The notes: generated by a model not told the origin, from the letters alone. A DNA stretch of 63,414 bases from a virus (IMGVR_UViG_3300029822_000009:1-63414), one strand, 5' to 3'. Numbered from the stretch's first letter, positions 14,006 through 63,341 are shown. Program-made: numbers and translations.

Positions 14006-14031
14006 AAGGGAGTTGTTTAACTCCCTTTTTT
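14006..14031. terminator. Bidirectional terminator
   Basis: aaagggagtt..aactcccttttt between convergent genes. Confidence 0.6.
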
Positions 14032-14226
14032 AATTTTTTTAATTTTTAATTTTCTTAAAGCCAGTTCAACCTTTTCAATTCCTATTTTTTCAATTAAATA
14101 TTCAACTGAATTATTTTTAATTGCTACATCAACAGGATCTTCTTCTTTTTCAATTGTCCACATTGAATATGCATCATTTTTCCTTTTGATGAAATCACTA
14201 TAAAATATTTTATCTTTTTTATACAT
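14017..14226 (-). CDS. Small protein, IGIEKVELALRKLKIKKI
   Basis: ORF track; paralog of 14219..14386. Confidence 0.65.
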   Translation of the reverse strand: MYKKDKIFYSDFIKRKNDAYSMWTIEKEEDPVDVAIKNNSVEYLIEKIGIEKVELALRKLKIKKIKKGS

Positions 14227-14386
14227 TTTTAATTATTTTATTAAGTTTAATTTTTCTTAATTCTAATTCAATTTTCTCTATACCAATTATTTCGATGATA
14301 TCTTTAATGGAATAGTCATTTAATATAACTTTTATATTATATTGTTCATCGACATAAATTTTATATGCATTATCTCCGTCTTCCAT
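14219..14386 (-). CDS. 55-aa protein, IGIEKIELELRKIKLNKI
   Basis: Manual translation MEDGDNAYKIYVDEQ...RKIKLNKIIKNV; not in the ORF track. Confidence 0.65.
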   Translation of the reverse strand: MEDGDNAYKIYVDEQYNIKVILNDYSIKDIIEIIGIEKIELELRKIKLNKIIKNV

Positions 14387-14397
14387 ATTATAATTAT

Positions 14398-15048
14398 TTA
14401 ATTTATTTTTTCAATAAAAACTTCAAGATGATCTTTATTATATTTAATTCCAAAAGATGGTTTAAATGGATTTTGTCTACCTTTAAAATTTAATATATTA
14501 AACTCTTTATCTGTTTTGTGTTTATCTTTTAATAGTTTTTTATATTCTATTTTTAATGCAAATTCAAAATCATCCATTGTTGTTTTAACCCAACTACCAT
14601 TTGATTCAATTATTTGTTCTGGTCTTAGATGTTCACCTAAATGATGCCATAATTCACCATTATACTCAAATACTTTAGGTTTTTTAAGAACACAAGCATA
14701 ATCTTTATAACAATTTATATCTTTAACTTTTATTTTTCGATTCTTTAAAAGTTTAATATAAGTCGGATTTACTTTAGAAATAAATTCAATTTTGTCTGAT
14801 TTTTTTACTTCTACTGTATAAAAAATATCATCATATTTTATTCTATTACCATTATCATCTTTTAACCAATAACTCTTATTTGATATATGACCCGGTTCAT
14901 ATGTTGAACCAATTAAAAATTTATCAATATGACCATGAAGAAATGCATAACAACCTCTTTTTTTAGGAGGATTATGAAAAGACTTGTCACCTGTTTTATA
15001 TTGATCCTGATAAACTGATGATAAACCACCAAATCTTACAAATTTCAT
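14398..15048 (-). CDS. Hypothetical phage protein
   Basis: ORF track; FHNPP..RG.YAF, LWHHL, KDHLEVFIE motifs. Confidence 0.65.
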   Translation of the reverse strand: MKFVRFGGLSSVYQDQYKTGDKSFHNPPKKRGCYAFLHGHIDKFLIGSTYEPGHISNKSYWLKDDNGNRIKYDDIFYTVEVKKSDKIEFISKVNPTYIKLLKNRKIKVKDINCYKDYACVLKKPKVFEYNGELWHHLGEHLRPEQIIESNGSWVKTTMDDFEFALKIEYKKLLKDKHKTDKEFNILNFKGRQNPFKPSFGIKYNKDHLEVFIEKIN

Positions 15049-15425
15049 TTTGTTAAATTTTTAAGTTTTAATATTTTTTCCTTTCTATTTCTTAATTTTT
15101 TAAAATGTAAATAATTATCGTAATCATTTATTTCAATTGAATATATAAATGGAAATAATTTTTTATCTCTGATAAATGATTTATCATCAATTGTAATATT
15201 ATCATCCATATTAATAATATTATATAAGTAGTTAAAATCTATTAAAATATCATCATCTTTATATAAATATTTAACATTAATATTTAATATATCTACTACA
15301 TTAATATTATGAAAAATTGGTATGTCATAACTGTAAAATCTATAGTTACCATTATTACTAACAAATTTAAAGTTTTCTGGTTTTTTACTCCAACTAAACC
15401 ACATATTTTTATTTTTTTTACTCAT
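15045..15425 (-). CDS. Hypothetical protein, RKEKILKL tag
   Basis: ORF track; TAATTTTG promoter-like site at 15432-15439. Confidence 0.6.
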   Translation of the reverse strand: MSKKNKNMWFSWSKKPENFKFVSNNGNYRFYSYDIPIFHNINVVDILNINVKYLYKDDDILIDFNYLYNIINMDDNITIDDKSFIRDKKLFPFIYSIEINDYDNYLHFKKLRNRKEKILKLKNLTK

Positions 15426-16600: not shown

Positions 16601-17095
16601 ATGAGTTCAAATAAATCAAAATTTAATAATAAATATAAACAAGGATTTTATCATTTACAAAATCCTAATAAATATATAGGAGATCCAACTAATATAAAAT
16701 TTAGAAGTAGTTGGGAATATGCATTTTGTACATTTTTAGATATGAATGATAAAATAATAAGGTGGTCATGTGAACAGCCCGTTATAACTTATCAAGATTT
16801 AAGAAATAAAACACATAGATATTATCCTGATTTTTATTACCAAATGTGTATAGATGGAGATCCACATAAATATAAACAGGTAATAGTAGAAATAAAACCA
16901 CAAAGTGAATTATACCCACCTAAAAGACCATTAAATGAAACAGCAAAAGCATTAGAAAATTATGAATATGCAGTAAGAACACATGTAAAGAATAAGTTAA
17001 AGTGGAATGCTGCGATAGATTATGCCAAAAATCATAATGCTGAATTTATTATAATTACTGAAAAACATTTAAAACAAAAAGGTCTTTTAAGATAA
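16601..17095 (+). CDS. Head completion nuclease (T4 gp4-like)
   Basis: YKQGFY..NP.KY.GDP..I.FRSSWE, WSCE, HRYYPDF, VEIKP, N..KW.AA, F.IITE. Confidence 0.85.
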   Translation: MSSNKSKFNNKYKQGFYHLQNPNKYIGDPTNIKFRSSWEYAFCTFLDMNDKIIRWSCEQPVITYQDLRNKTHRYYPDFYYQMCIDGDPHKYKQVIVEIKPQSELYPPKRPLNETAKALENYEYAVRTHVKNKLKWNAAIDYAKNHNAEFIIITEKHLKQKGLLR

Positions 17096-18150
17096 TGAAA
17101 AGAAAACCAAGGAATTATTGGACAAAAGATAAATGTCAAATAGAGGCTTTAAAGTATAATTCCATGAACGACTTTAAAAGAGGTAATAATGCAGCATATA
17201 GTGCATCTTATAGAAATAATTGGATAAATGATATATGTTCACATATGATACCAAAACAAAAACCAAAGGGATATTGGACTTACGAAAGATGTAAAGAAGA
17301 ATCATTAAAATATAAAACTATCACAGAATTACAAAATAATTGTTCAACTGCGTATAAAATAATAAGGGAAAATAAATGGAATGAATTATGTTTACATATG
17401 GTAAGTTCACAAAAACCAAAGGGGTATTGGACTTACGAAAGATGTAAAGAAGAAGCATTAAAATATAATAATAAAAGTCTTTTTCAAAAAGAGTGTGTAC
17501 AGGCATATTACAAAAGTCTTAAAAATAATTGGTTAGATGATATATGTTCACACATGAAAAATAAACAAAAACCAAAGGGATATTGGACTTACGAAAGATG
17601 TAAAGAAGAAGCATTAAAATATAAAAATAGATATGATTTTAACAGAAATTCTATGGGTGCATATAATAGAGCAATTAAAAGTAAATGGTTAGATGATATA
17701 TGTTCACATATGAAAGTACAAAAAAATAATACCAAAAGATGTATATATTCATACGAATTTAAAGATAATCATGTTTATATTGGATTAACATATAATTTAG
17801 AAAAAAGACATATTGATAGATTAAAATCAAAAAATGACCAGGTAACAAAACATATAAATGAAACAAATTTAAAACCAGTTAAAAAACAATTAACAGATTA
17901 TATAGATGTCAATGATGCTATAAAAATGGAAGGATATTATGTGAATAAATATAAAAATGACGGTTGGAATATTTTAAATAAAATAAAAACTGGTGCAATT
18001 GGCGGTAAATTAAAATGGACATATGAAAAATGTAAAGAAGAAGCATTAAAATATAAAAATAGAACAGAATTTTTTAAAAAATGTAAAGGAGCATATGCAT
18101 CATCAAGTAAAAATAGATGGTTAGATGAATTTTTCCCAAACCTGATTTAA
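17095..18150 (+). CDS. GIY-YIG-like endonuclease with five ~52-aa repeats
   Basis: CIYSYEF...VYIGLT....R, later E and LN; repeats KPxGYWTYERCKEEALKY...WLDDICSHM. Confidence 0.75.
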   Translation: MKRKPRNYWTKDKCQIEALKYNSMNDFKRGNNAAYSASYRNNWINDICSHMIPKQKPKGYWTYERCKEESLKYKTITELQNNCSTAYKIIRENKWNELCLHMVSSQKPKGYWTYERCKEEALKYNNKSLFQKECVQAYYKSLKNNWLDDICSHMKNKQKPKGYWTYERCKEEALKYKNRYDFNRNSMGAYNRAIKSKWLDDICSHMKVQKNNTKRCIYSYEFKDNHVYIGLTYNLEKRHIDRLKSKNDQVTKHINETNLKPVKKQLTDYIDVNDAIKMEGYYVNKYKNDGWNILNKIKTGAIGGKLKWTYEKCKEEALKYKNRTEFFKKCKGAYASSSKNRWLDEFFPNLI

Positions 18151-19104: not shown

Positions 19105-20252
19105 TAAATATGATTATATTACAAGAAAAAGGAAAAAAACCAAGAAATTATTGGACATATGAAAAATGTAAAGAAGAAGCATTAAAATATAAATCTATTA
19201 CAGAATTTCAAAAAAATAGTAATGGATCATACTACAGTTCATTAAAAAATAATTGGTTAACTGATATTTGTAAACATATGATACAAAAAAGAAAACCAAA
19301 TGGTTATTGGACATATGAAAAATGTAAAGAAGAAGCATTAAAATATAAAACAATTACAGACTTACAAAAAGGAAATATTAGTTGTTATAATATATGTTAT
19401 AAAAATAAATGGATAAATGAATTATGTAATCATATGGTAAGTCCACAAAAACCTAGAAATTATTGGACATTTGAAAAATGTAAAGAAGAATCATTAAAAT
19501 ATGACAATAGGAAAGATTTTAAAAACAAAAGCAAAGGTTGTTATAGTGCTTGTTATAAAAATAATTGGATAGATGAATTATGTAAACATATGATAATTAA
19601 AGGCAATACACACAGAAAATGTATATATTCTTATGAATTTGATGATAATCATGTTTATGTTGGATTAACGTATAATTTAGAAAAAAGACATAATAATCGA
19701 TTAAAATCAAAAACAGATCAAGTTATAAAACATATGAATGAAATAAATTTAATACCTAGAAGAAAACAATTAACAGATTATATAGATGTTAGTGAAGCTA
19801 TAAAAATGGAAGAATATTATGTAAATAAATATAAAAATGATGGTTGGAATATTTTAAATAAGATGAAAACTGGTGGAATTGGAGGAGGTAATAAAATATG
19901 GACATTTGAAAAATGTAAAGAAGAAATATTAAAATATAAAAATAAAAAACAATTAAGAATTAATAACCCGTCAGTATATACAATAATAAAAAATAATAAA
20001 TGGGTAGATATTTTATGTTCACATATGAGTACTATAAGGAAACCAAATGGGTATTGGACATATGAAAAATGTAAAGAAGAATCATTAAAATATGACAATA
20101 GAAAAGATTTTAAAGAAAATAGTTCTAGTGCATATAATACATCATTAAAAAATAATTGGTTAAATGATATTTGTAAACACATGATACAAAAAAGAAAACC
20201 GAAATATAATAAACAAAAAAGTATATAAATATGATTATATTACAAGAAAAAG
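19105..20252. repeat. 27-bp direct repeat (19105-19131 and 20226-20252) flanking the second GIY-YIG gene
   Basis: taaatatgattatattacaagaaaaag twice; both ORFs start MIILQEK. Confidence 0.9.
19110..20228 (+). CDS. GIY-YIG-like endonuclease with five ~52-aa repeats; paralog of 17095..18150
   Basis: CIYSYEFDDNHVYVGLTYNLEKR; same repeat unit. Confidence 0.75.
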   Translation: MIILQEKGKKPRNYWTYEKCKEEALKYKSITEFQKNSNGSYYSSLKNNWLTDICKHMIQKRKPNGYWTYEKCKEEALKYKTITDLQKGNISCYNICYKNKWINELCNHMVSPQKPRNYWTFEKCKEESLKYDNRKDFKNKSKGCYSACYKNNWIDELCKHMIIKGNTHRKCIYSYEFDDNHVYVGLTYNLEKRHNNRLKSKTDQVIKHMNEINLIPRRKQLTDYIDVSEAIKMEEYYVNKYKNDGWNILNKMKTGGIGGGNKIWTFEKCKEEILKYKNKKQLRINNPSVYTIIKNNKWVDILCSHMSTIRKPNGYWTYEKCKEESLKYDNRKDFKENSSSAYNTSLKNNWLNDICKHMIQKRKPKYNKQKSI

Positions 20253-22034: not shown

Positions 22035-22535
22035 TTATTTTCTTTTAATTTTCTTCTGTAAATCTTTAATTTTTACGATTCTCATAATTCTTTTATTTTT
22101 TTTACCATAATTTTTAAAACAAATTGGTCCAATTCCTAATTCAATATTATCTTTAACTGTAAGTGTTCTAGCACAACAGCAACAAATTCCCATATGATAA
22201 AATTCCATATCGGTTGGAAATTCTTTATCGTTTTTAAATTGTTTTAATAACCATTTAATACCAGAAATACAATCATGAACAGCATCAACTTTAACTTTTT
22301 GAGTTCTAATATAATCTATATCATCAATTTTAATAATACCTAAATATTGATAATTACCATCTAGTAACACTGATATATAGTATATTTCATCATTATTTTT
22401 ATCTTTTGGTTTTGTAATTTTATACATGAACCATTTACCAGTTTTATTTGATTTTAGTATAAATTTACCTTTACCACCAAAAAAATATAATTTAATATCT
22501 TCTTTATCTAATATTCTAATTCCTTTATTAATCAT
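22035..22535 (-). CDS. DUF6011-like zinc-binding protein
   Basis: CCCCARTLT....ELGIGPIC; likely start MINKG. Confidence 0.65.
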   Translation of the reverse strand: MINKGIRILDKEDIKLYFFGGKGKFILKSNKTGKWFMYKITKPKDKNNDEIYYISVLLDGNYQYLGIIKIDDIDYIRTQKVKVDAVHDCISGIKWLLKQFKNDKEFPTDMEFYHMGICCCCARTLTVKDNIELGIGPICFKNYGKKNKRIMRIVKIKDLQKKIKRK

Positions 22536-22647: not shown

Positions 22648-24414
22648 ATGGCATCATATAGACAACAAAATAATCAAGGTATGTTAGGTGGAACTGGAAT
22701 AAACCAAGGATTTTTTAATAAAATGCTTAGAAAAATAAGTAATTATGGATTATTATATGATATTGACACAGCAAGACAGTCATTTGCAATTGGAGCATCA
22801 GAAAATCCTGAATCATATTCAAATATGGGTAATATTACAGAAGGTCCTTATATGTATGATTTATTTACCAAAAAGATGATATCTAAGATATTAGATAAAA
22901 AATCAATTGCTCAACTAGATAGATCTTATTTTGATAAAAGAAAAATATTAAGACAATATTCAATAAAAGACGAAATAAGAGATTATATTAACCAGATCGC
23001 AGATGAAGTAATTATATTCAATGATAAAAATAAATTTTGTTGGGCTGCTGATTTACCAGATGAATTTGATGATATTATAAGAAAAAAAGTCCATGAAAAT
23101 TTTCAAAAATTATATAATGTATTTGGTTTTAATGATGGTATAACAGCATGGAATCATTTAAAAGATTTATTAATTGATGGATTTATTGCATTTGAAATTG
23201 TATATGATAAAAAACAAAAAAATATAACAGATTTAGTAAAGTTAGATCCATTGACATTAGTACCTGCAGCTGATCCAGAAACTCAAACAATTGTATGGAT
23301 ACAGTATCCTGATAATCCAAGATTAAGAAGAGTACTATTAGATGCACAAGTTGTTTATATATCTTATGGTAATAATCAAGATTATGGGGAGACATCTTAT
23401 GTTGAACCTTTAATAAGACCTTATAATCAATTAAAATTAATAGAACAAACAAAATTACTTTATAATATAAATCAAGCTGCAATTTATAAAAAATTCGTTA
23501 TACCTGTTGGTGGTTTATCGAGACAACAAGCTGAACAACAAATATATCAATTAATGTCTGAATATCATGAAGATATACAATGGGATGATAATTTAGGTAC
23601 AGTAAGTATAAATGGTAGTTCACATATTCCACATAGTAAAGATTTTTGGTTTCCGTCTTCTAATGAAGGAGGAACACCTGAAATTACAATAGAAACACCA
23701 CAAGGTAATGATTTAAATGAAGATCAAATTTTAAATTGGTTTGATAAAAATTTAAAAAAGGCATCAAGAATACCATTTTCTAGATTTGAAAAGGAGTCAG
23801 GTGGTGGTAATTTATATCAAGATGCATCAGAAATGACAAGAGATGAAATAAAATTTCAAAATTTTATTAAAAGAATAAGAACAGTATTTAGAGAATTATT
23901 AATAAAACCTCTTAAAATTCAAATGATGAGAGATTTCCCAGAATTAATGCAAGATTATAATTTTATAAATAATTTAAATGTTATATTTAACTCTAATGAA
24001 TTATTTGAAGAATGGAAATATTTAGCAAATTTAGAAAAAAGATCAAATATCGCATCAACATTATCATCTAATTTACAAAATGCAGAAGGTGAAGGATATT
24101 TATCTTTAGAATGGATTATTAGAAATATTATGAAATTTACCGATAAAGATATTGCAGAAAATGATAAATACAAATTAAAAGAAAAAGGATCACTTAGTGG
24201 AAGAGAAGGTGTTGAAGGTGAAGAAGGAATGGGTGAAGAAGAATTTGGTGGACCTCCATCTGGACCAGGTGCACCATTTTTTGGAGGGAGTGAACCACCA
24301 TCATCAGGTGGAGAATTTGGAGGAGAACCACCCGCACAAGGCGGTGAATTAGGAGGAGAAGCACCTGCACAAGGCGGACAAGCTGAAACAGGAGGAGAAG
24401 AACCTGTTCAATAA
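22648..24414 (+). CDS. Portal protein (T4 gp20-like)
   Basis: EI...INQIADE, IDG..FE, SYVE....PYNQLK.IE, DFWFP, TRDEIKF..FI.RIR..F; Gly/Glu/Pro-rich tail. Confidence 0.9.
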   Translation: MASYRQQNNQGMLGGTGINQGFFNKMLRKISNYGLLYDIDTARQSFAIGASENPESYSNMGNITEGPYMYDLFTKKMISKILDKKSIAQLDRSYFDKRKILRQYSIKDEIRDYINQIADEVIIFNDKNKFCWAADLPDEFDDIIRKKVHENFQKLYNVFGFNDGITAWNHLKDLLIDGFIAFEIVYDKKQKNITDLVKLDPLTLVPAADPETQTIVWIQYPDNPRLRRVLLDAQVVYISYGNNQDYGETSYVEPLIRPYNQLKLIEQTKLLYNINQAAIYKKFVIPVGGLSRQQAEQQIYQLMSEYHEDIQWDDNLGTVSINGSSHIPHSKDFWFPSSNEGGTPEITIETPQGNDLNEDQILNWFDKNLKKASRIPFSRFEKESGGGNLYQDASEMTRDEIKFQNFIKRIRTVFRELLIKPLKIQMMRDFPELMQDYNFINNLNVIFNSNELFEEWKYLANLEKRSNIASTLSSNLQNAEGEGYLSLEWIIRNIMKFTDKDIAENDKYKLKEKGSLSGREGVEGEEGMGEEEFGGPPSGPGAPFFGGSEPPSSGGEFGGEPPAQGGELGGEAPAQGGQAETGGEEPVQ

Positions 24415-34204: not shown

Positions 34205-34705
34205 ATGAAGTATTTAAAATCATATAACGAATCCATTAAACATCTTTTAAAACCCAAAGATAGTGAAGAAGTATCAAAAACTGTTGAAATAAGAGATCAG
34301 ATTTATATACAACAACATAAATGTCAATATGAAATTTTAAAATTTTTAAAATCTATAAAATTTAAATTTGATTATCCAATTGAATTAATAAAAGAACCAA
34401 CTATGTTTGATATGATTGGTAGTATAATTATTACTGATTTTATAAAAGAACATAAAAGAATAATACCAAACTTTAATAAATTATCATATGATGAACAAAA
34501 TATAGCATGGGATAAAAGTATTAATAATATAATTAAACCTAAAATTAAAGAAATATTAAATCAATATGATTTTAAATTAAATGATGACGGTATTAAATAT
34601 GGTCAAGGTGATTTATTAATAGAATTTTCTACACCATATGACGAATTATTAAAATTTAGTAAATCAAATTTTAAAATAGTATCTGATAAATTTATAAAAA
34701 AATAA
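34205..34705 (+). CDS. Hypothetical protein with MKYLKSYNESIKHLLKPK leader
   Basis: ORF track. Confidence 0.7.
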   Translation: MKYLKSYNESIKHLLKPKDSEEVSKTVEIRDQIYIQQHKCQYEILKFLKSIKFKFDYPIELIKEPTMFDMIGSIIITDFIKEHKRIIPNFNKLSYDEQNIAWDKSINNIIKPKIKEILNQYDFKLNDDGIKYGQGDLLIEFSTPYDELLKFSKSNFKIVSDKFIKK

Positions 34706-34711
34706 AATTTC

Positions 34712-35368
34712 ATGAAAAAATTTACTACTATATTAAACGAGAAAATGGAAATAGAAAAAGGAACAATTAAATTATCTGTTCTTTTTACTGATATTGTTGA
34801 TAGTGCTGAAAAATGGAGAGATAGTAAAGAAGATATGATGAAATCATTAGAACAACAATCTATTTTGTTCGATAATTTATCAAAGAAACATAAAGGTATA
34901 ATTGTAAAATCTATTGGAGATGCATATATGGTATCATTTAAAAAAATTGAAGATTCGATAAAATTTGCAATAGAATTACAAAATGAATTAAAAGAAAATC
35001 CAATTAAAGTAAATAATAAAAATATAAATATTAGAATTGGAATTTGTTATGGAGAAGTACATGAAACTACAATTGAATTACAAGGACATAAAATTATTGA
35101 TTATATGGGAAATGTAGTAAATAGTGCTGCAAGAATAGAAGGAAAGGTATGTAAACCAGGTAATGTGGTTTTTTCTTCTTTTGATGAAAATATTGATATT
35201 AAAGATTTATTAAAAGATTATAAAGTAGATTTTATAAAATTTAAAAATGAAGGAGATGAAGCTAAAAGATCATCAAGGCTACTAACAGATGTACAAAGAT
35301 ATTATTATAAAGATATTAAGGAACTAAAAGGAATTAAAGAAATAGAAGTTTATCATATAAATTTATAA
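34712..35368 (+). CDS. Class III adenylate cyclase
   Basis: VLFTDIVDS, VKSIGDAYM, IRIGI, DYMGNVVNSAARIE; Lys/Asp ATP-specificity residues present. Confidence 0.85.
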   Translation: MKKFTTILNEKMEIEKGTIKLSVLFTDIVDSAEKWRDSKEDMMKSLEQQSILFDNLSKKHKGIIVKSIGDAYMVSFKKIEDSIKFAIELQNELKENPIKVNNKNINIRIGICYGEVHETTIELQGHKIIDYMGNVVNSAARIEGKVCKPGNVVFSSFDENIDIKDLLKDYKVDFIKFKNEGDEAKRSSRLLTDVQRYYYKDIKELKGIKEIEVYHINL

Positions 35369-35409
35369 CTTTTTTTATTTTCATTACTATATAAATAAAA
35401 ATTTTAGTA

Positions 35410-35820
35410 GTGAAAGATTTAATCAATAAATTAATAATTGATCAACCTTTTGGTATTTATACAAGAAATGGTTTAGAATATACATTAAAGGATATTAAAA
35501 ATAAACTTCATATTTATTTATTAGATTTTAATGATGTTAAATCATTAAATGAAAAACATGGTTATAAATCGGTTAATGAAATTTTTAAAAAAACCTTTTC
35601 AGAATTAAATGACAAATTTATCATCGGTAGAGCTTTCTCGGGTGATGAAATATTTATATGTACTACTAATGAAGATGCTGAAATATGGGCAATTAATTAT
35701 ATAGAAAAAATTTGTTCAAAAAACAATTTATATTTTGAACATATATATTCTATTTTTGATCCATTTGAAGAAGATATAAAAGATAAATTTGATAAAATGA
35801 TAGAACAATTACATGGATAG
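35410..35820 (+). CDS. Truncated/degenerate GGDEF-like domain protein
   Basis: LLDFNDVKSLNEKHGY...IGRAFSGDEIFI; GTG start. Confidence 0.7.
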   Translation: MKDLINKLIIDQPFGIYTRNGLEYTLKDIKNKLHIYLLDFNDVKSLNEKHGYKSVNEIFKKTFSELNDKFIIGRAFSGDEIFICTTNEDAEIWAINYIEKICSKNNLYFEHIYSIFDPFEEDIKDKFDKMIEQLHG

Positions 35821-35977
35821 ATATTATACAAAATTAATATCAACTGATTTAATTGAAGTTAAACCATTAGATAAACCAAATGGTACTTTATACTATATGG
35901 ATTATACATATAAAGATTTGTTAAAAGAAAGAAAAGAAAAAATTGATAAAATCATAGGAAAATGGAAGAAAAAATAA
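35813..35977 (+). CDS. 54-aa protein resembling a major-capsid segment, with RKEKIDKI tag
   Basis: MDRYYTKLISTDLIEVKPLDKPNGTLYYMDYTYKDLLKERKEKIDKIIGKWKKK; not in the ORF track. Confidence 0.65.
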   Translation: MDRYYTKLISTDLIEVKPLDKPNGTLYYMDYTYKDLLKERKEKIDKIIGKWKKK

Positions 35978-36258
35978 CCGAAAATCAAGTAATGGATTAT
36001 TGTCTTCATTTATTAGATGGTTGTAAAAGATTAAATTTAAATTATTATAAATTTGATTTCTATAAGAGATTAAATGATTTTTATAATAAAAGATTAGTTA
36101 ATGGGAATTATATGGTTAATGTATCAAATAAAGAATGTGTTAATTTTCTTGAAGATATATCAAAAGAAATTAATTATTATTATGAAAGCAGAAGTCCAAA
36201 ATATAGAAAGTATAAATTACAAAATATAATAAAAAGAAATGAAGTCAGAAAAAATTAA
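35962..36258 (+). CDS. Hypothetical protein, RKYKLQNI tag
   Basis: ORF track. Confidence 0.6.
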   Translation: MEEKITENQVMDYCLHLLDGCKRLNLNYYKFDFYKRLNDFYNKRLVNGNYMVNVSNKECVNFLEDISKEINYYYESRSPKYRKYKLQNIIKRNEVRKN

Positions 36259-36502
36259 AAGTGATATTAATAATATACTAGAAAAATATTTTTTTGAATT
36301 TAATACAGATAAAACTAGAAATCAAATATGTAATGAATTATCTAATTATTTAAATATGGATGTTATCGATAAGACAACCAATGATATGATAAGGTATGAT
36401 CAATTTGATTTTAGAGTAAAAATAGGTAATAATTATTATCCGTTAAATGATACATTAATTCATATAGAAAGAATTGAAAAATTAAAAAGAATAATGAAAT
36501 AA
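36239..36502 (+). CDS. Small protein resembling the tail-sheath C-terminal domain, RIEKLKRI tag
   Basis: YFFEFNTDKTRNQICNELSNYL recalls the sheath FE.N...TR motif. Confidence 0.55.
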   Translation: MKSEKIKSDINNILEKYFFEFNTDKTRNQICNELSNYLNMDVIDKTTNDMIRYDQFDFRVKIGNNYYPLNDTLIHIERIEKLKRIMK

Positions 36503-36505
36503 CTT

Positions 36506-36973
36506 ATGAATAAACACGAACAATTAGAAAAATTAGAAAAAGAATTAAAAAAATTAAAAGATTTACATAAATCAATGTGGGAATCATATGGTAGTGAATT
36601 ATCATCTGGTGATATGGAAAATAAAGAAAAAGAATTAGAATATAAAATTAGAGAAATTAAAAATGAAATAGTTAAAGATTTCTTTATTGAAAGAGGAGCA
36701 TATCCAGATTTTGAAATTATTAATTCACCAATGTTTATAATTAAAGATAAAGGAATAACTAAAACGTTAATGTTACAAACATTAGGAATAAATGTTAGTT
36801 ATTTTATTGATGAATACTTAAATAATTTAAATATAAAAACTTTTATTTATAATAATGGTGATATAGATTCATTTAATGATAATATGTTTTCAATAAGATT
36901 TGCAACATTAGAATGTGATGATAGACTTATGAAATATAGAAAGAATAAAATTAATAAAATATATGGTAAATAA
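36506..36973 (+). CDS. Hypothetical protein, RKNKINKI tag
   Basis: ORF track. Confidence 0.6.
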   Translation: MNKHEQLEKLEKELKKLKDLHKSMWESYGSELSSGDMENKEKELEYKIREIKNEIVKDFFIERGAYPDFEIINSPMFIIKDKGITKTLMLQTLGINVSYFIDEYLNNLNIKTFIYNNGDIDSFNDNMFSIRFATLECDDRLMKYRKNKINKIYGK

Positions 36974-37958
36974 ATTAGAAGAAATAGGATTTTATTCTCT
37001 TAGTGATGAAAGAGCTAAGAATGCATCATTAACATCACAAATGAAGAGATGCGAGATGATTATCACTGAATACTGCAATTTCAATTGCCCATATTGTAGA
37101 GGATTAAAATCAGAAATATATGGTAATCGGAAACATAAAATGTTATCATTAGATGAAGTAAAGCAAAATATAGATTATTGGTGTGAAAATGAACCATTAG
37201 AAAATATAAGATTTTCTGGAGGAGAACCAACATTACACCCAAATATTAAAGAAATAGTTAAATATTCAAAAGAAAAAGGAATAAATAGAATTGCTATATC
37301 AACTAATGGTTCTAATAACTTAGAATTATATAAACAACTTATAAATTTAGGTGTTAATGATTATTCAATATCATTAGATGCTTGCTGCAGTGAAGACGGC
37401 GATAAAATGGCAGGTGATATTAAAGGATCTTGGGATATAGTAATAAACAATATAAAAGAAATATCTAAATTGACATATGTATCTGTGGGTATCGTATTAA
37501 ATGAAATGAATATTGATAAAACAATAGATACTATTAAATTTGCTGATTCATTAGGAGTTTCAGATATCCGTATAATAAGTTCTGCTCAATTTAATCAACC
37601 TATACCAAGATTAAATGAAGTACCAGAAACAATTAAGGAAAAATATCCTATATTAAGATATAGAATTGATAATTTTGCAAATGGTATAAATGTTAGAGGA
37701 TTAACTGAAAACGATAGTCATAAATGTCATTTAATGTTAGATGATAGTGTTATAGCGGCTGATTTTCATTTTCAATGTGTTATTCACATGAGAGAAGGAG
37801 GTAAACCAATTGGTAAAGTTGGACCAAATATGAGACAGGAAAGATATGATTTTATACAATCATTTGATACTCATAAAGATCCAATATGTAAAAAGAATTG
37901 TTTAGATGTTTGTCGTTTTTTCAATTCTAGATATGATTATTATAATAGATGTTTGTAA
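36963..37958 (+). CDS. Radical SAM protein
   Basis: CNFNCPYC, FSGGEPTL, STNG; C-terminal Cys cluster. Confidence 0.85.
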   Translation: MVNKLEEIGFYSLSDERAKNASLTSQMKRCEMIITEYCNFNCPYCRGLKSEIYGNRKHKMLSLDEVKQNIDYWCENEPLENIRFSGGEPTLHPNIKEIVKYSKEKGINRIAISTNGSNNLELYKQLINLGVNDYSISLDACCSEDGDKMAGDIKGSWDIVINNIKEISKLTYVSVGIVLNEMNIDKTIDTIKFADSLGVSDIRIISSAQFNQPIPRLNEVPETIKEKYPILRYRIDNFANGINVRGLTENDSHKCHLMLDDSVIAADFHFQCVIHMREGGKPIGKVGPNMRQERYDFIQSFDTHKDPICKKNCLDVCRFFNSRYDYYNRCL

Positions 37959-37994
37959 TTAATATATAGAATAAAATAAAATAAACATAATAAA

Positions 37995-38204
37995 ATGAAT
38001 AAAAAATTAAAAGTTGGATTAGATTTAACAAAACCAAAAATTAAAAAATTTAATGAATTTAATGAATTGATCATACAAGAATCAATTAATAATACTGATG
38101 TAAATTTAATTAAAAAATCATTCCAAAATATTGGTATTGATATAGTTAATGATAAATCAGGTTATAAAATAGATATTACAAAATATGGGGAAGATATTGA
38201 ATAA
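37995..38204 (+). CDS. Hypothetical protein
   Basis: ORF track; KIKKFNEF motif. Confidence 0.5.
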   Translation: MNKKLKVGLDLTKPKIKKFNEFNELIIQESINNTDVNLIKKSFQNIGIDIVNDKSGYKIDITKYGEDIE

Positions 38205-38538
38205 AAACTGGTTATCTAATGGTGAAATAATTAAACAATATAATTGTATATGGGATACTGGTTCAATGGAAACATTAATATCTGAAAAAGTTATAAATGA
38301 TTTAAATCCAATAAAAAATGGATATGTATTTATAAATACTATTCATGGAGAAAAGAAATCAGATAAATATATTTTACAATTGTTATTAGAAGATCATTCA
38401 AAATCTATAAAAATAAATTCTGCTTGTTTTGGAAAAAGTAGAGAATTTGACATTATTATTGGAATGGATATAATTGAATATGGTTTATTTGTTTTAGATA
38501 AAGGTAAATTTTCATTTACAATTGAACAACTTAAATAA
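38185..38538 (+). CDS. Retropepsin-like aspartic protease
   Basis: IWDTGS and DIIIGMDII. Confidence 0.75.
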   Translation: MGKILNKNWLSNGEIIKQYNCIWDTGSMETLISEKVINDLNPIKNGYVFINTIHGEKKSDKYILQLLLEDHSKSIKINSACFGKSREFDIIIGMDIIEYGLFVLDKGKFSFTIEQLK

Positions 38539-38540
38539 AT

Positions 38541-38789
38541 ATGGCAATACATAACAAATGGTTAAACGATTATGCTAAAGAACACACATTTAAAATTTTT
38601 AAAACAAATGAACCTTGTCCACATAAAGGATGTTATAATCATGTTATAACCCCATGTGAATTATGTGGTAGAATAGGAATGCAAGGTGACTTTAAAATAA
38701 GTATAAATGATCTAGAAAAAATTAAAAATAGACATAGAAAAATAAATAAATTATATGAGAAAAACAATTGGGTTAGTAGCACACGATAA
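38541..38789 (+). CDS. Small Cys/His zinc-binding protein, RHRKINKL tag
   Basis: PCPHKGCYNH...CELCGR. Confidence 0.6.
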   Translation: MAIHNKWLNDYAKEHTFKIFKTNEPCPHKGCYNHVITPCELCGRIGMQGDFKISINDLEKIKNRHRKINKLYEKNNWVSSTR

Positions 38790-39201
38790 TAGAAAAGAAG
38801 ATTTAATAGAATGGGTACAGTATAATGCTAAAAGAATAAGTAAACATAAATTAGTATGTACCGGCACTACTGGTAAATTAATAATGGTGGCATTAGATGA
38901 AAAAGGATATTCAACAGAAATGGAAATACTTAAAAGTGGTCCATTGGGAGGAGATCAAGAATTAGGAGCAAGAATAACAAATGAAGAAATTGATGTTTTG
39001 ATATTTTTATGGGATCCTATGTCAGTTCAACCACATGATGTTGATGTTAAAGCTTTATTAAGATTATCTGTATTATATAATATACCAACAGCATCTAATA
39101 GGTCGACAGCAGATTATATTATATCATCAGAATTGTTTAAAGACAAAGATTATAAACCAACTAAAAAAGATTATTCTAAATACATTAATAGAGAAATATA
39201 A
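38755..39201 (+). CDS. mgsA: Methylglyoxal synthase
   Basis: LVAHDNRK, TGTTG, SGPLGGDQ, WDP...QPHDVDVKALLR. Confidence 0.93.
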   Translation: MRKTIGLVAHDNRKEDLIEWVQYNAKRISKHKLVCTGTTGKLIMVALDEKGYSTEMEILKSGPLGGDQELGARITNEEIDVLIFLWDPMSVQPHDVDVKALLRLSVLYNIPTASNRSTADYIISSELFKDKDYKPTKKDYSKYINREI

Positions 39202-39202
39202 T

Positions 39203-39925
39203 ATGAAAACAAATAAAGTGTATAATGGTGATTGTTTAGAAATAATGAAAAATATACCAGATAAATCTATTGATTTAATTGTTTGTGATTTACCATTTGG
39301 TTCAACCGCAAATAATTGGGATATTATAATACCATTTGAACCTTTATGGGAACAATATAAAAGAATAATGAAAAAAGAAACACCTATAATTCTATTCGGT
39401 ACAGGTTTATTTGCATATAAATTAGCATTATCTAACGAAAAAATGTTTAAATATGAAATAATATGGCATAAATCAAAATCTGGTTCTGCCTTTACTGCTA
39501 AATATAGACCAGTTGCTAAGCATGAAAATATATTGGTTTTTGGTAAAGGAAAAATAAAATATAATCCACAATTAATTGAAGGCGAACCTTATAAAAGAAA
39601 ATGGACAGAACATAAATTAAACAACATGAAATATGGTTTTAAAGGAGTAGAACATGATAATAAAGGAACTAGACATCCAGGTAGTGTTCAATTTTTCCAA
39701 CAAAAATGGAGAAGACAAGATCAAGTCCATCCAACTCAAAAACCAGTAGAATTGTTAGAATGGATTATAAAATCGTATTCAAATGAAGATGATATTGTAT
39801 TGGATAATACCGCAGGTAGTGGAACAACTGGTGTCGCATGTATAAATACAAATAGAAATTATATTTTAATTGAAAAAGAACAAAAATATATTGACATAAT
39901 AAATAAAAGATTAAATAATGGATAA
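39203..39925 (+). CDS. DNA methyltransferase (N4C/N6A, beta-like)
   Basis: GDCLE, CDLPFG, HENILVF, HPTQKP, VLDNTAGSGTT. Confidence 0.9.
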   Translation: MKTNKVYNGDCLEIMKNIPDKSIDLIVCDLPFGSTANNWDIIIPFEPLWEQYKRIMKKETPIILFGTGLFAYKLALSNEKMFKYEIIWHKSKSGSAFTAKYRPVAKHENILVFGKGKIKYNPQLIEGEPYKRKWTEHKLNNMKYGFKGVEHDNKGTRHPGSVQFFQQKWRRQDQVHPTQKPVELLEWIIKSYSNEDDIVLDNTAGSGTTGVACINTNRNYILIEKEQKYIDIINKRLNNG

Positions 39926-40331
39926 AGAAATAATTAGAAAAAAATGGGAGCCTATTATAGAAATGCAAATAGAACCTATTAAATTAGATTATCAAACAGA
40001 AGTGGAAATATCAGTATGGGTAGAGAGGTATATGGCTTCAAATATAGAACACGAAAGAAGGATATCATTTTTAACAACATCATTTAAAAAATATAGAAAC
40101 TTATTATTAACCGATAAAGGATATTCAATTAATGTAATAAAAACTTTTTATAATCCATTAATAAATGAAATATGTTATGAATTAGAAAACGGCGAAGTTA
40201 TAATTAATAATAAAAAATATGAAACTCAAATTAGTAGTGACTATAGAATAAATTTATTTTATTCAATTGTTGATCCTGGTAATCCTAAATTAAGAAATTT
40301 AAAAATTAATAAATTAATAAATGGTAGATAA
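39918..40331 (+). CDS. Hypothetical protein with capsid-like N-terminus (KKWEPIIE) and RNLKINKL tag
   Basis: ORF track. Confidence 0.6.
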   Translation: MDKEIIRKKWEPIIEMQIEPIKLDYQTEVEISVWVERYMASNIEHERRISFLTTSFKKYRNLLLTDKGYSINVIKTFYNPLINEICYELENGEVIINNKKYETQISSDYRINLFYSIVDPGNPKLRNLKINKLINGR

Positions 40332-41517: not shown

Positions 41518-41546
41518 AAAAAGGGAGTTAAAAACTCCCTCTTTTA
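41518..41546 (-). terminator. dnaK terminator
   Basis: agggagtt-aaa-aactccct hairpin with a U-tract on the minus strand. Confidence 0.7.
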
Positions 41547-44500
41547 TTTCACTTCTTCAAAATCGGCATCTGTAACATTTTGATCACCATTGTCTTGTGG
41601 TGGATTATCCTGTGGTGCATCCTGTGGTTGTGATTGATAAATTCTAGTTGAAATTTCATTCCATTTTTTGATAATATTTTCAGTATCAATCTTAATTTTA
41701 TCAAAATCTTTTTCAGAATGAGATTTTTTCAATTCTTCTACCAATTTTGTCAAATCTTCCTTTTCATTATCAATGAATTTATCAGTGAATTCTTCGATTT
41801 GTTTTTCTGTTTGAAATACCATTGAATCAGCATTATTCAAAATATCTATTTCTTCTTTTGTCTTTTTATCAGATTCTTCATTTTCTTTAGCTTCTCTTTT
41901 CATTCTTTCAATTTCATCATCTGATAAATTAGATGAACCTTCTATTCTAATAGATTGTTTTTTACCTGTTCCTTTATCTTCTGCTGATACATGTAATATT
42001 CCATTTGCATCCACATCTAGCATCACTTCTATTTGTGGTACTCCTCTTCTAGCAGGTGGTATACCATCTAGGTGAAATCTACCTAATGTTTTATTATCTT
42101 TTGCTAAAGGTCTTTCACCTTGAAGAACATGTATCTCTACACTTGGTTGATTGTCAGATGCAGTTGAGAAAACCTGTGATTTTCTTGTTGGTATTGTAGT
42201 ACCAGCTTCCACTAATTTTGTCATTACATTACCCATCGTTTCAATTCCTAATGAAATTGGAATAATATCAAGAAGTAATACATCATCAACTGTACCAGTT
42301 AATACACCACCTTGAATTGCTGCTCCCATAGCTACTGATTCATCAGGGTTTAATATTTTTGATGGTTCTTTTCCAAATACTTCTTTAGCAACTTTTTGTA
42401 CAATTGGTATTCTTGTTGATCCACCAACTAGTAAAATTTCATCAATATCAGATGCATTATAACCAGAATCCTTTAATGATTTAATACATGGTTCTTTTAA
42501 TTTTTTTAATAACTCATCACTAAGTTGTTCAAATTTTGCTCTTGATAATGTCGTAACCAAATGTTTTGGTATACCGTCTACTGGCATAATATATGGTAGA
42601 TTAATTTCAGTTGATGTAGTAGATGATAATTCTATTTTAGCTTTTTCAGCTGCTTCTCTTAATCTCTGATATGCCATTTTATCTTGTTTAATATCAATAC
42701 CATTTTCTGACTTAAATTGTTCAACTAACCAATCTACAATAACTTCATCAAAATTATCACCACCTAAATTTACATCACCATTAGTTGATTTTACTTCAAA
42801 TACACCATCACCTAGTTCTAAAATCGAAATGTCAAATGTACCCTTTTTGTTATCGTTAAGCTCTTTATCTTAACTTCTACATATTTCTATGTAGTTCAGA
42901 CTATATCTTAAAAAGTGTTTAAAAAGTCATCTAAATATTGTGTAAAAATAATTTTATATACCATATTGTTTTCTTTTGCATATTTTTTAGCAATTCTTTC
43001 TTTCATTAACCATTTACCACTTTTAACTTGTTCTTTATGCCATATATGATTATCTTTTATTTCCAATAAAATTTTTTTATCTGGTATTTCAAAATCAACA
43101 TAATAGTGATACAATTTATTATTAAAATAATAATCTAGTATAGGTCCATTTTTTATTAAGATTTTTTTATTATTCATAAAATTAATAACTTTTAATTCTG
43201 GTTTACTTTGATAATTTACTATATCATTATTTATGTTTAAATGTTTTCTTAATTTAAAAGTTTTATTAACAAATGAACAATTTTTACACATTATTTTATA
43301 ATTATTTATTTTTTCTTTTGGTTTTCTTGTTGTATTAAAAGTACACCCACAATTATCACATTTATAAGTTATATTATTAAAATTTATAAATAAATCATTT
43401 TTAAAATCATATAAATATGATGAATATTTTATTTGATTATTAGTTTTTAAGTGTTCATAAAAAATAAAATTATCATTAAATAATATACCATTTACTTTAA
43501 CTATTGATTTTTTTATTTTATTAAAATCATCAATATTGATATGTGTATTATAATAATTCTTAATAAAAATTTTAGATTCATTAAAAAAATCATTATTAGA
43601 TTCATTTATATAATCTATACTATTAATTTTTTTTGGTTTTATTTTAATATTCTTTGGTTTTATTTTGCCATTTTTACTATATGTTTCCTTCATAAACATT
43701 GATTGATTTAATCTTTTATCATATGTTTCAGAACAATTTATACAATTTAATGTTTTTTTTACTAAAAATTTTTTTAGTAAAATTGTGTGTGTATTACCAC
43801 ATGTATGACAAACATAAGTTATTTTTGTTCTTTTTAATTTTACCAAATTATTATTAAAATATAAACGTTTTGTTAAATTATTAGTTATTATAGATTTTTC
43901 TGTTATAATGTCAAATGTACCACCTGATAATATGACATTATCTACAATAACATTTTTAATATTTTTACACAATATTTCAAAGAACTCTTTATTTTCGTTC
44001 ATACATTTAATTTTTATTTTATATATTAAAATCAAATGTACCACTTTTTTCCATTTTTCATGGGAATTTTATCATATGAATAATTCACTTAGATTACTTT
44101 TCCTAGTCGTTGAACCTTTTTCCTCTTTCAAGGAAACTTGGCTGCTGATTGTCCAATTCTTTAATTTTTTAAACCATCACACTTATAATTACTTATTATG
44201 TTGTGGTATTAAAGACTCTAAGGAGTTTCCAGCAATTTAATGGATTTTAAATATTTAAAAGAACGATATTCTAAATACTAACGGGAGGCAGTCATTTTAA
44301 TTTTTACCACCCAAATCAAACACAGCAATCTTTTTATCACCTTTAACTTTATCCATTCCATATGAAAGTGATGCTGCTGTTGGTTCATTAATAATTCTTA
44401 ATACATTAAGTCCAGCAATTTCACCTGCTTCTTTAGTTGCAGTTCGTTCTTGATCGTTAAACCAGGCGGGAACTGTAATAACTGCATCTTTAACTTCTGT

Positions 44501-45157
44501 ACCTAAGTATTCTTCCGCTGTTTTTTTCATTTTTTGAAGAACAATAGCAGAAATTTCTTGTGGAGTATAGTCTCTATCATTAACTTCAACAACGGCTAAA
44601 CCGTTTTTACCTTCTTTTACTTTAAATGGAAAATGTAGATGTTTTATATCCTCATATTTCTTTCCAATTAATCTTTTAACACTAAAAATAGTGTTTTCAT
44701 TAGTGATCATTTGTCTTTTTGCTGGATCACCAACTTTAATTTCACCATTTGGCATAAAACCAACAATTGAAGGTGTTGTTCTTTTACCTTCACTATTTGC
44801 AATCACTGTTGATTGACCATTTTCAATAACAGATACACACGAATTTGTTGTACCTAAATCTCTTTACCACACTTAGTTTCCTAAGCCATTTCTGTTGTGG
44901 TCTGGACTATACCATTATCCTTTTTACAGGATAGAGTGATTATAGTCTCTGAACCTTATTCCTAATAGGAATCTTGGCTGCGGATTGCCCAATTTCAATT
45001 GTTTTTACTATACCTTTGTCATTAACATCGCCATTATTATATTACTACAATAACTTAGTAAATTGAACTTAAGGGTGTTCCCGCAATTTACACTCTTTAA
45101 TCATCTTATGTTACCATAAGAGGGGACCGATTAATTAATCCCAATACATTTACTCAT
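41544..45157 (-). CDS. dnaK: Chaperone DnaK, three exons: 45157-45138, 44861-44306, 42842-41544 (624 aa spliced)
   Basis: Joined exons give MSKCIGI|DLGTTNS...TVPAWF...DLGG|GTFDISIL...VGGSTRIP...DADFEEVK in frame (20+556+1299 nt). Confidence 0.93.
42843..44305 (-). ncRNA. Group I intron 2 in dnaK (1463 nt) carrying an endonuclease ORF
   Basis: 5' exon ends in U, intron ends in G. P AAUUGCUGGAA (44227-37), Q AAUCAGCAGC (44141-50), R GUUCAACGACUA (44104-15), S AAGAUAUAGUCU (42898-909). Confidence 0.92.
42908..44002 (-). CDS. Intron-encoded putative homing endonuclease (CxxC zinc ribbons plus PD-(D/E)XK-like domain)
   Basis: [14 protein letters not shown]....LEIKD.H.WH; lies between R and S; own TATATA promoter at ~44020-44025. 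Confidence 0.8.
   Translation of the reverse strand: MNENKEFFEILCKNIKNVIVDNVILSGGTFDIITEKSIITNNLTKRLYFNNNLVKLKRTKITYVCHTCGNTHTILLKKFLVKKTLNCINCSETYDKRLNQSMFMKETYSKNGKIKPKNIKIKPKKINSIDYINESNNDFFNESKIFIKNYYNTHINIDDFNKIKKSIVKVNGILFNDNFIFYEHLKTNNQIKYSSYLYDFKNDLFINFNNITYKCDNCGCTFNTTRKPKEKINNYKIMCKNCSFVNKTFKLRKHLNINNDIVNYQSKPELKVINFMNNKKILIKNGPILDYYFNNKLYHYYVDFEIPDKKILLEIKDNHIWHKEQVKSGKWLMKERIAKKYAKENNMVYKIIFTQYLDDFLNTF
44862..45137 (-). ncRNA. Group I intron 1 in dnaK (276 nt, ORF-less)
   Basis: P1 exon GGGAU pairs with intron GUCCC giving the U-G wobble; P AAUUGCGGGAA, Q AAUCCGCAGC, R GUUCAGAGACUA, S GGUAUAGUCC; terminal G at 44862. Confidence 0.92.
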
Positions 45158-62788: not shown

Positions 62789-62837
62789 AATTATTATTAT
62801 TTTTATTTATATATTAAAAAATTAATATAAAGTTTAG

Positions 62838-62909
62838 AGCACTGTGTCGGACTTGAACCGCTTCTCCTGCTTGGCAAGCAGGCACTTTACCAATTAAGCT
62901 ACACAATGC
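62838..62909 (-). tRNA. tRNA-Gly(GCC)
   Basis: Acceptor GCATTGT/ACAGTGC; anticodon arm CCTGC-TTGCCAA-GCAGG; imperfect T-stem. Confidence 0.8.
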
Positions 62910-62915
62910 ATTTTG

Positions 62916-63002
62916 TACCTTGGGTGGGAATCGAACCCACACGCTACTATTACTTCGCACCAGTTCCTAAGACTGGGGTGTCTACCATTCCACCACCAAG
63001 GC
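62916..63002 (-). tRNA. tRNA-Leu(TAG)
   Basis: CCAGT-CTTAGGA-ACTGG; long variable arm; GGTTCGATTCC. Confidence 0.92.
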
Positions 63003-63008
63003 ATATAG

Positions 63009-63081
63009 TACACTCATCACGATTCGAACGCGAATCAAATGGTCCGTAGCCATACGTTTTATCCAATTAAACTATGAGTGT
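63009..63081 (-). tRNA. tRNA-Arg(ACG)
   Basis: ACACTCA/TGAGTGT acceptor; loop CTACGGA. Confidence 0.88.
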
Positions 63082-63098
63082 AATTTATTGATAACCAG

Positions 63099-63174
63099 TG
63101 GAGCAGACGGGATTCGAACCCGCATACAGACATAGGATGCGAACCTACCGCTCAGCCAATTGAGCTACTGCCCC
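63099..63174 (-). tRNA. tRNA-Ala(CGC)
   Basis: GGGGCAG/CTGCTCC with G3-U70; loop TTCGCAT. Confidence 0.88.
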
Positions 63175-63188
63175 ATTTATTATTTTAG

Positions 63189-63259
63189 ATCTCCTGATTG
63201 GAATCGAACCAACAACTAATCCATACCACAGATTTGTTTTCCCATTAAACTACAAGAGA
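63189..63259 (-). tRNA. tRNA-Thr(GGT), atypical
   Basis: TCTCTTG/CAGGAGA acceptor; loop GTGGTAT; GGTTCGATTCC. Confidence 0.72.
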
Positions 63260-63266
63260 ATATCAG

Positions 63267-63341
63267 GGTGATTGATCAGACTCGAACTGACACATTGTAC
63301 GCATCCACAGTGCGACCGACTTACCATTATCTACAATCACC
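63267..63341 (-). tRNA. tRNA-His(GTG)
   Basis: Encoded G-1 opposite C73; loop CTGTGGA. Confidence 0.85.

Follow-up and report, generated by a model that had tools for sequence, protein, structure and literature searches.

Why should many small and unrelated proteins of one virus end in nearly the same few residues? The question is raised by IMGVR_UViG_3300029822_000009:1-63414, a stretch of viral DNA of 63,414 bases (referred to as the window, meaning the whole stretch that was analyzed), in which a run of small open reading frames (ORFs) between 35813 and 40331 closes with the motif R-x-x-K-[IL]-x-x-[IL] (referred to as the tag). A preliminary description of this DNA proposed that such ORFs are micro-proteins made of virion-protein fragments plus a common C-terminal tag, which together would form a decoy system. 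The analyses presented here demonstrate that this C-terminal tag is no chance pattern: its position is locked, it occurs across the clade, it is modular, and selection acts on it as a peptide. Many unrelated small proteins with one shared end peptide look like an undescribed protein-addressing system.

The record has a GC content of 19 to 30% and a CheckV completeness of 13%. It contains a T4-like portal gene at 22648-24414 (Pfam Portal_T4, 6e-73), whose best-matching counterparts in the phage collection belong to uncultured phages with genomes of 735, 634, 636, and 642 kb (48 to 60% amino acid identity). Judged by these relationships, the source is a huge phage of the Mahaphage clade with its nearest records at 634 to 735 kb, and the window makes up approximately 13% of its genome. 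Bacteroidetes are named as the predicted hosts of this clade in a passage of the study describing it (PMC7162821). Up to the portal, the gene order of the window is that of the 735-kb relative, and near-identical DNA was seen in metagenomes from fermentation, landfill, and groundwater, with no RNA run among the sequencing runs listed as containing it. In the short contigs from these runs, junctions and loose ends at 80% similarity look like repeats or other organisms.

A common C-terminal motif had been claimed for four ORFs, starting at 35813, 36239, 39918, and 4035, and the motif is indeed present at the end of all four. Cataloging the tagged ORFs across the window places it in the tails of 12 of the 89 nonoverlapping gene models, with a single match in a body, whereas over 5,000 shuffles of each tail the count averaged 0.38 and never exceeded 4. 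In all 12 carriers, the tag lies 10 to 19 residues ahead of the stop. Among 144 ORFs of at least 40 residues that begin with ATG, we counted 13 matches, with 12 inside the last 25 residues. The six-frame count for the window is 23, and the 11 matches outside the carriers comprise 1 in a 520-residue ORF, 2 in segments of other frames (64 and 140 residues), and 8 in segments of at most 25 residues. A hidden Markov model (HMM) of the tag scored the 12 carriers, which are its own training set, at 16 to 30 bits and the next best of the 89 models at 4.8 bits. Six carriers fall within 35813-40331, and the other six begin elsewhere (3672, 4035, 14017, 14219, 15045, and 22035).

The tag extends well beyond this record. 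A six-frame search of five relatives with a 28-position alignment of the tag was insensitive (3 to 12 candidates per genome), and the genomes were scanned directly instead. The 635-kb relative is a complete genome (634,780 bp, 944 gene models called locus by locus) in which the motif occurs 141 times; 114 of these occurrences are in the last 25 residues, carried by 114 of the 944 models, and 91 tail motifs begin 10 to 14 residues from the end. In 1,000 shuffles of the tails of the same genome, the count averaged 4.0 and peaked at 13, and the 27 matches in protein bodies approximate the chance rate. Tags of this genome follow the consensus [IL]-R-[DEN]-x-K-[IL]-x-x-[IL]-[LGIF], after which 0 to 2 residues remain, and 79 of the 114 have D or E after the Arg. 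Carriers in this genome range from 46 to 731 residues with a median of 99, and by length class they make up 21 of 138 models at 45 to 74 residues, 37 of 132 at 75 to 99, 42 of 230 at 100 to 149, 13 of 242 at 150 to 249, 0 of 144 at 250 to 499, and 1 of 58 at 500 residues or more. For the 636-kb relative, of which 400 kb was sampled, 27 of 34 strict matches are in tails, and 70 of 601 models show a relaxed R...I..L pattern within 18 residues of the C terminus, often as members of tandem arrays.

The complete genome of the 735-kb relative lacks the tag (13 matches, only 3 in tails). It contains another motif, DP[YFW]GE[ED], mostly in the form DPYGEExW, in 102 copies; 40 of these lie within 25 residues of the C terminus (26 at a distance of exactly 10 residues from the stop), and the other 62 are N-terminal or internal. 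We did not find DPYGEExW in the window, in the 635-kb genome, or in the sampled parts of the 636-kb and 462-kb genomes, and the 400 kb sampled from the 462-kb relative contained neither motif. The replacement of one motif by another between lineages suggests a receptor that may have changed too. Within the 735-kb genome, N-terminal copies of DPYGEExW come after an M-I-K-K-F-x-x-F-E lead (residues 8 to 25), internal copies link domains, and up to four copies occur in one protein. The 462-kb relative has 12 proteins of 163 to 369 residues that end in ..NADDFG[FL].., mostly NADDFGFFDN, and that look like a paralog family with an acidic-aromatic C terminus.

Such a recurrent end could reside in nucleotides rather than residues, with the 3' end of each gene working as RNA or DNA (a translation enhancer, a promoter, or a recombination site) and the peptide as a by-product. 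The sequence is A/U rich, and tagged genes run into the start of the following same-strand gene in 53 of 84 cases, a higher share than the 151 of 375 for small genes without the tag; we take this excess to reflect dense operons and not an RNA signal. However, the motif is always in frame, and the out-of-frame matches in the window are almost all in short segments of noncoding frames. Codons for Arg, Lys, Ile, and Leu at tag positions approximate genome-wide usage: Arg is AGA in 71% of tags versus 76% genome-wide, Lys is AAA in 82% versus 74%, and Ile and Leu codons are mixed. Ile and Leu alternate with each other, as do AGA, AGG, and CGN, and the tag is maintained at 21, 27, and 29% GC. In addition, 22 tagged genes of the 635-kb relative have a convergent gene downstream, and the window pair 3672-4046 and 4035-4622 is convergent with both members tagged, which leaves such a signal no downstream gene. 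We regard a nucleic acid signal as extremely improbable. At the peptide level, five homologs of the ORF at 35813-35977 (56 to 70 residues, 71 to 96% identity) differ at both ends but are invariant in a capsid-like segment and in the tag; public contigs hold a variant with an in-frame insertion of 6 nucleotides, and the five substitutions listed among variants of this ORF are three synonymous and two conservative ones. Three close homologs of 36239-36502 retain the tag, as do 6 of the 8 near-full-length homologs among 11 found for 39918-40331, at 32 to 65% identity.

Alternatively, the C-terminal helix could be the best-conserved part of one ancestral small gene, and the carriers a single fast-diverging paralog family instead of hosts to a transferable tag. 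The tandem arrays of the 636-kb relative do show C-terminal similarity over a longer stretch (such as ..FWTLAEYRK-x-IIEDLI), and the window ORFs starting at 14017 and 14219 are paralogs. That pair, however, is the sole similarity among the window carriers (E value of 1.9e-4), and carriers across the whole length range have differing bodies, predicted or known, including DUF6011, major capsid protein (MCP) pieces, and a P-loop-like domain. When the tag was trimmed from the 114 carriers of the 635-kb relative, they formed 114 separate BLAST components with 112 singletons, and Pfam recognized three families with one member each. Only 1 of the 12 window carriers (22035-22535, a DUF6011 protein) has a homolog in the 635-kb relative, and in the 735-kb relative no significant homolog was found for any of them; pairwise phmmer comparisons of the window carriers to the proteomes of both relatives gave null-level matches only, the DUF6011 protein excepted. 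The same C-terminal piece of the MCP bears the basic tag in the 635-kb relative and DPYGEExW in the 735-kb relative. A single-family origin is hard to reconcile with this diversity, and we give it little credence. An AlphaFold2 model of 39918-40331 depicts the tag as a terminal helix at residues 123 to 135, with a predicted local distance difference test (pLDDT) score of 59 to 65 versus approximately 90 in the body.

At least one carrier does combine a virion segment with the tag. The 54-residue micro-protein at 35813-35977 on the plus strand consists of an MCP-like segment (35819-35926, equivalent to residues 96 to 126 of the MCP of the relatives) and the tag RKEKIDKI (35930-35953). Its likeness to T4 gp23, first noticed from the sequence alone, was borne out by several comparisons. 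The Pfam Gp23 family (PF07068) matches residues 3 to 38 over profile positions 14 to 45 of 376 (E value of 1.6e-4; 21.6 bits versus a cutoff of 24.4), and in a six-frame search of the record with this family, 35819-35926 was the sole location (E value of 5e-5). BLAST aligned 27 residues at 44% identity to positions 100 to 126 of the MCP of the 635-kb relative. With an HMM built from five MCPs of the clade, 35813-35977 was the sole match among 309 window ORFs (E value of 3.6e-6), and reversed ORFs gave none below an E value of 1; hhalign of its family against the MCP alignment gave a probability of 93.8% and an E value of 1.8e-7. On this homology, the ORF holds a true copy of MCP residues 96 to 126, a segment that probably corresponds to the Gol peptide region of gp23, which is conserved and is sensed by Lit. 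Like gp23-type capsid proteins, it includes a stretch of 30 residues that shares homology with the conserved N-terminal part of the mature protein; unlike them, it spans only 32 of 376 profile positions, scores under the family cutoff, and would be unable to form the capsid fold. A search for longer homologs of the 54-residue ORF found none. It is best described as a derived fragment, not an MCP.

The other virion resemblances that had been pointed out are weaker. The 87-residue ORF at 36239-36502 (plus strand, tag RIEKLKRI at 36470-36493) was said to contain a sheath motif, and residues 5 to 48 (36251-36355) weakly resemble the C-terminal domain of the tail sheath. It matched the PHROG tail sheath family phrog_10581 at an E value of 0.0079 per protein and 9e-4 in the six-frame search, BLAST to the C terminus of a relative's sheath gave an E value of 0.001 with that sheath as the only subject, and hhalign gave 0.024. 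All four tests point to the same C-terminal segment of the sheath, but the hhalign probability is 2%, and the claim stands as a faint similarity. Likewise, the 137-residue ORF at 39918-40331 (plus strand, tag RNLKINKL at 40293-40316), a member of a conserved family, begins with a KKW-x-P-I-I stretch weakly like the MCP N terminus. In support of that likeness, hhalign placed residues 1 to 39 on MCP residues 6 to 41, a matching position, at an E value of 0.0085; however, the probability is 4.7%, and the clade MCP HMM did not pick up this ORF among the 309 window ORFs. AlphaFold2 models it as a helix-and-sheet domain (pLDDT of 81.7) for which Foldseek returned no match at an E value of 1e-3 or less in the PDB or BFVD, and no relatives were found in the viral contig collection.

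The suggestion of a terminase-like piece at 4035-4622 found no confirmation and amounts to a lead. A six-frame search with Terminase_6N (PF03237) found no match there, its sole match in the window being 5975-6229, and neither an HMM of two terminase-like sequences nor a sequence search of the PDB matched this ORF. What it does have is a weak ResIII match (E value of 0.0079), Walker-like motifs by eye, and a lead from the language model of the ESM Atlas to small Terminase_6N clusters (0.88 to 0.90); its single-sequence fold, at a pLDDT of 29.6, is too low to use. Nearby, a 298-residue ORF at 5639-6535 on the minus strand matches the N-terminal part only of the terminase ATPase profile (E value of 7e-5) and resembles the 755-residue terminase of the 735-kb relative, which points to a short terminase paralog or fragment.

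Copied virion pieces are not peculiar to the window. Six-frame family searches of the relatives uncovered small ORFs holding MCP, sheath, and portal pieces. In a phmmer test for fragments, E values above 1e-2 showed no excess over reversed queries, and such weaker matches were ignored. In the 635-kb genome, 41 small ORFs match a large protein at an E value of 1e-3 or less versus 3 for reversed queries, and among donors of at least 300 residues the MCP ranks first with four different small ORFs. With DPYGEExW masked, the corresponding figures for the 735-kb genome are 55 and 3; the MCP is again the first donor with 7, followed among head proteins by a protease-containing protein with 4 and the portal with 3. 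The copied MCP pieces come mostly from the first ~100 residues (5 of 7 in the 735-kb genome and 3 of 4 in the 635-kb genome), and one 196-residue ORF strings together several MCP motifs.

The overlap between fragments and tags is partial, which qualifies the architecture originally proposed for the carriers as a group. A virion fragment joined to a tag exists in 35813-35977 and recurs in the relatives, but it accounts for a minority of carriers: after trimming, 2 of 107 carriers of the 635-kb genome match a large protein at an E value of 1e-3 or less, versus 1 for reversed queries. Of the 55 fragment ORFs in the 735-kb genome, only 3 have the C-terminal motif. Since the carriers fall into 114 separate components and only 2 of 107 match a large protein, the tag is better seen as a general, proteome-wide module than as the handle of an epitope library.

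What could such a module do? We tentatively favor a portable docking peptide that most likely steers its cargo to the assembling prohead, a reading that we consider plausible while stopping short of calling it probable. The tag would be a strictly C-terminal short helix, with the consensus [L]-R-x-x-K-[IL]-x-K-[IL], added to many unrelated small proteins, and would bring all of its carriers to one common partner; that it binds a partner, who that partner is, and where it resides are points that we infer. The carriers may be cargo or assembly accessories that enter a very large capsid and perhaps reach the next host cell. Micro-proteins from copied head-protein pieces, above all of the MCP, would use these pieces as a second handle on the same assembly. 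The prohead is the favored destination because head proteins are the preferred source of copied pieces and because short terminal peptides load cargo into T4 proheads and encapsulin shells.

Several observations weigh against docking at the prohead. Few carriers resemble a head protein at all (the 2 of 107 above, versus 1 for reversed queries), and the window is without MCP and scaffold genes, so the phage's own pair lies outside the analysis. The carriers sit in long same-strand arrays of small genes, and in T4-like and jumbo phages such arrays typify early genes of host takeover and less so late head genes. We know of no precedent for more than 100 different cargo species per genome. The T4 targeting sequence is N-terminal, whereas the tag is C-terminal, and since 62 of the 102 copies of DPYGEExW are N-terminal or internal, a free C terminus is no general requirement of these motifs.

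The decoy proposal from which this work started holds that the micro-proteins present virion segments recognized by immune sensors such as Avs, CapRel, or Lit, with the tag directing the occupation, redirection, or destruction of those sensors. The true MCP segment in 35813-35977 and the recurrence of MCP, portal, and sheath pieces in relatives speak for it, as does the triggering of Lit and of CapRel by capsid proteins, as described in PMC12926258 and PMC9712102, respectively. However, most carriers have no virion similarity, and a fragment bound to its sensor ought to set that sensor off. Copying also favors the N-terminal region of the MCP, a region that is removed from T4 gp23 at maturation, and this bias fits docking to an assembling head at least as well as it fits a decoy. 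An immune decoy or antagonist library is unlikely, less likely than a docking peptide, and it would account for a minority of carriers only. We judge it similarly unlikely that the tag is a degron, through which a host or phage AAA+ protease or a C-terminal processing protease would clear many small and probably early proteins at set times. ClpX recognition of C-terminal degrons is established, the tag is strictly C-terminal, short, and basic-hydrophobic, and most carriers are small accessory ORFs whose arrays are of the kind usual for early genes; yet 0 to 11 variable residues come after the motif, unlike degrons anchored on the last residues, and the conserved acidic residue after the Arg, together with the predicted helix, better suits a helix that binds in a groove. 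Rather unlikely as well is self-association, in which tag helices would bundle and pool many small proteins in one complex or condensate: the helix is amphipathic, its stand-alone confidence in the AlphaFold2 model is low, and hydrophobic residues recur at positions -1, +4, +7, and +8 from the Arg, but the hydrophobic face is just three or four residues long. The fragments might instead occupy MCP, portal, or sheath interfaces of rival phages or regulate the phage's own assembly, with the tag blocking or recruiting. Dominant-negative micro-proteins are established in eukaryotes, and the segments that were copied belong to the best-conserved stretches of head and tail proteins; such products would, however, poison the phage's own assembly unless they discriminate, and they would again cover only the fragment-holding minority of carriers. 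We see assembly interference as a poor candidate.

Beyond docking as such, a more speculative extension, which we hold to be doubtful, is that the largest phages run a proteome-scale addressing code. Interchangeable short terminal peptides, the basic helix R-x-x-K-[IL]-x-x-[IL] in one lineage and the acidic-aromatic DPYGEExW in another, would send at least 100 fast-evolving small proteins per genome, including purpose-made copies of capsid, portal, and sheath segments, to one phage-built destination. That destination may be the capsid interior, from which a prepacked takeover kit would be injected with the DNA, and the receptor would have switched together with the tag. Irrespective of this extension, huge phages encode hundreds of small genes without relatives or known function, and a tag on about one in eight gene models opens a first way into them. 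The tagged proteins form a testable class, a common receptor is predicted for them, and the peptide could be fused to reporters to trace the destination. The capsid-piece micro-proteins are relevant both to immunity that senses capsids and to the origin of new phage genes from old pieces.

The remaining carriers, all detected by the motif scan, give an impression of how diverse the tagged proteins are. On the plus strand, a 98-residue ORF at 35962-36258 (tag RKYKLQNI, 36205-36228) has no Pfam family, no PHROG family, and no paralog in the window; a 155-residue ORF at 36506-36973 (RKNKINKI, 36938-36961) has a body of unknown kind and no relative in the viral contig collection; and an 82-residue ORF at 38541-38789 (RHRKINKL, 38730-38753) has a cysteine-rich body. 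The convergent pair introduced above consists of a 124-residue ORF at 3672-4046 on the plus strand (RLNKIKKI, 4002-4025) and the 195-residue ORF at 4035-4622 on the minus strand (RNIKINKI, 4062-4085), which has a degenerate P-loop-like body. Also on the minus strand are the two paralogs, of 69 residues at 14017-14226 (RKLKIKKI, 14032-14055) and 55 residues at 14219-14386 (RKIKLNKI, 14234-14257), and a 126-residue ORF at 15045-15425 (RKEKILKL, 15063-15086). The last carrier, a 166-residue DUF6011 protein (Pfam E value of 1.2e-9) at 22035-22535 on the minus strand, adjoins the portal gene and ends with RIVKIKDL (22059-22082). The family phrog_20259 spans residues 7 to 141 only, so the tag sits past the end of the family profile, and the C terminus of its homolog in the 635-kb relative is a variant of the tag.

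Interspersed with the tagged ORFs in 34712-39925 are a nucleotide cyclase (34712-35368), a radical SAM enzyme (36963-37958), a retropepsin-like aspartic protease (38185-38538), an MGS-like domain protein (38755-39201), and a DNA methylase (39203-39925). An N-terminal motif, MKYLK-x-[FY]-N-E or MIKKF-x-x-F, opens many proteins, including the window ORFs 34205-34705 and 748-1275, which are 64% identical across their first 28 residues; by the strict pattern, it occurs in 26 of 1,038 and 9 of 944 models in the two complete relatives. The portal ends in a long acidic low-complexity tail rich in Gly, Glu, and Pro (24200-24414), as does the portal of the 635-kb relative. Two repeat proteins at 17095-18150 and 19110-20228 have ~50-residue repeats and are 58% identical to each other, and a 47-residue ORF at 5499-5642 equals one copy of that repeat. 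On the minus strand, an IMP dehydrogenase/GMP reductase-like gene (8150-9565) has Hint and intein-splicing domain matches mid-gene, and a phage Hsp70 gene is in two pieces, 41544-42677 and 44297-44755, which correspond to residues ~250 to 600 and ~50 to 196 of a single protein of 621 to 624 residues in relatives. A 364-residue ORF (42908-44002) separates these pieces, possibly as an intein or as an intron with a homing gene. Six transfer RNA genes (Gly, Leu, Arg, Ala, Thr, and His) are clustered at 62837-63340 on the minus strand.

In the main texts of the library that was searched, we came upon no account of the tag or of capsid-fragment ORFs that carry a tag, nor of DPYGEExW as a phage motif. 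The nearest general parallels are bacterial C-terminal sorting and degradation tags, in which a short end signal is common to many unrelated proteins of one proteome. ClpX degrons and the PEP-CTERM and LPXTG signals share with the tag a short C-terminal signal across unrelated proteins, but the tag is phage encoded, is not known from any host, has neither a transmembrane segment nor a sortase-type motif, and is followed by a tail of variable length. Among phages, the capsid-targeting sequence of T4 is a terminal peptide of ~10 residues that loads proteins into proheads and suffices for foreign ones, as stated in part of one account (PMC9958956). The likeness lies in the short terminal peptide, in the T4-like portal of this phage, and in the gp23-family MCP of its clade; the T4 sequence is, however, N-terminal and present on few proteins, whereas the tag is C-terminal, differs in sequence, occurs on ~12% of gene models, and is known from sequence alone. 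In encapsulins, short C-terminal cargo-loading peptides bind the inner side of HK97-fold shells, bring diverse cargo there, and are transferable to reporters, according to a section of PMC7355545. A short C-terminal peptide common to unrelated proteins is what we encountered in the window and the 635-kb relative, but encapsulins have one to few cargo types encoded beside the shell gene, whereas here more than 100 carriers are scattered, the motif is different, and the partner is a postulated one. If the destination of the tagged proteins is the capsid, the principles of T4 internal proteins and encapsulin cargo would extend to the scale of a proteome, which would explain how such phages could deliver a ready-made takeover kit.

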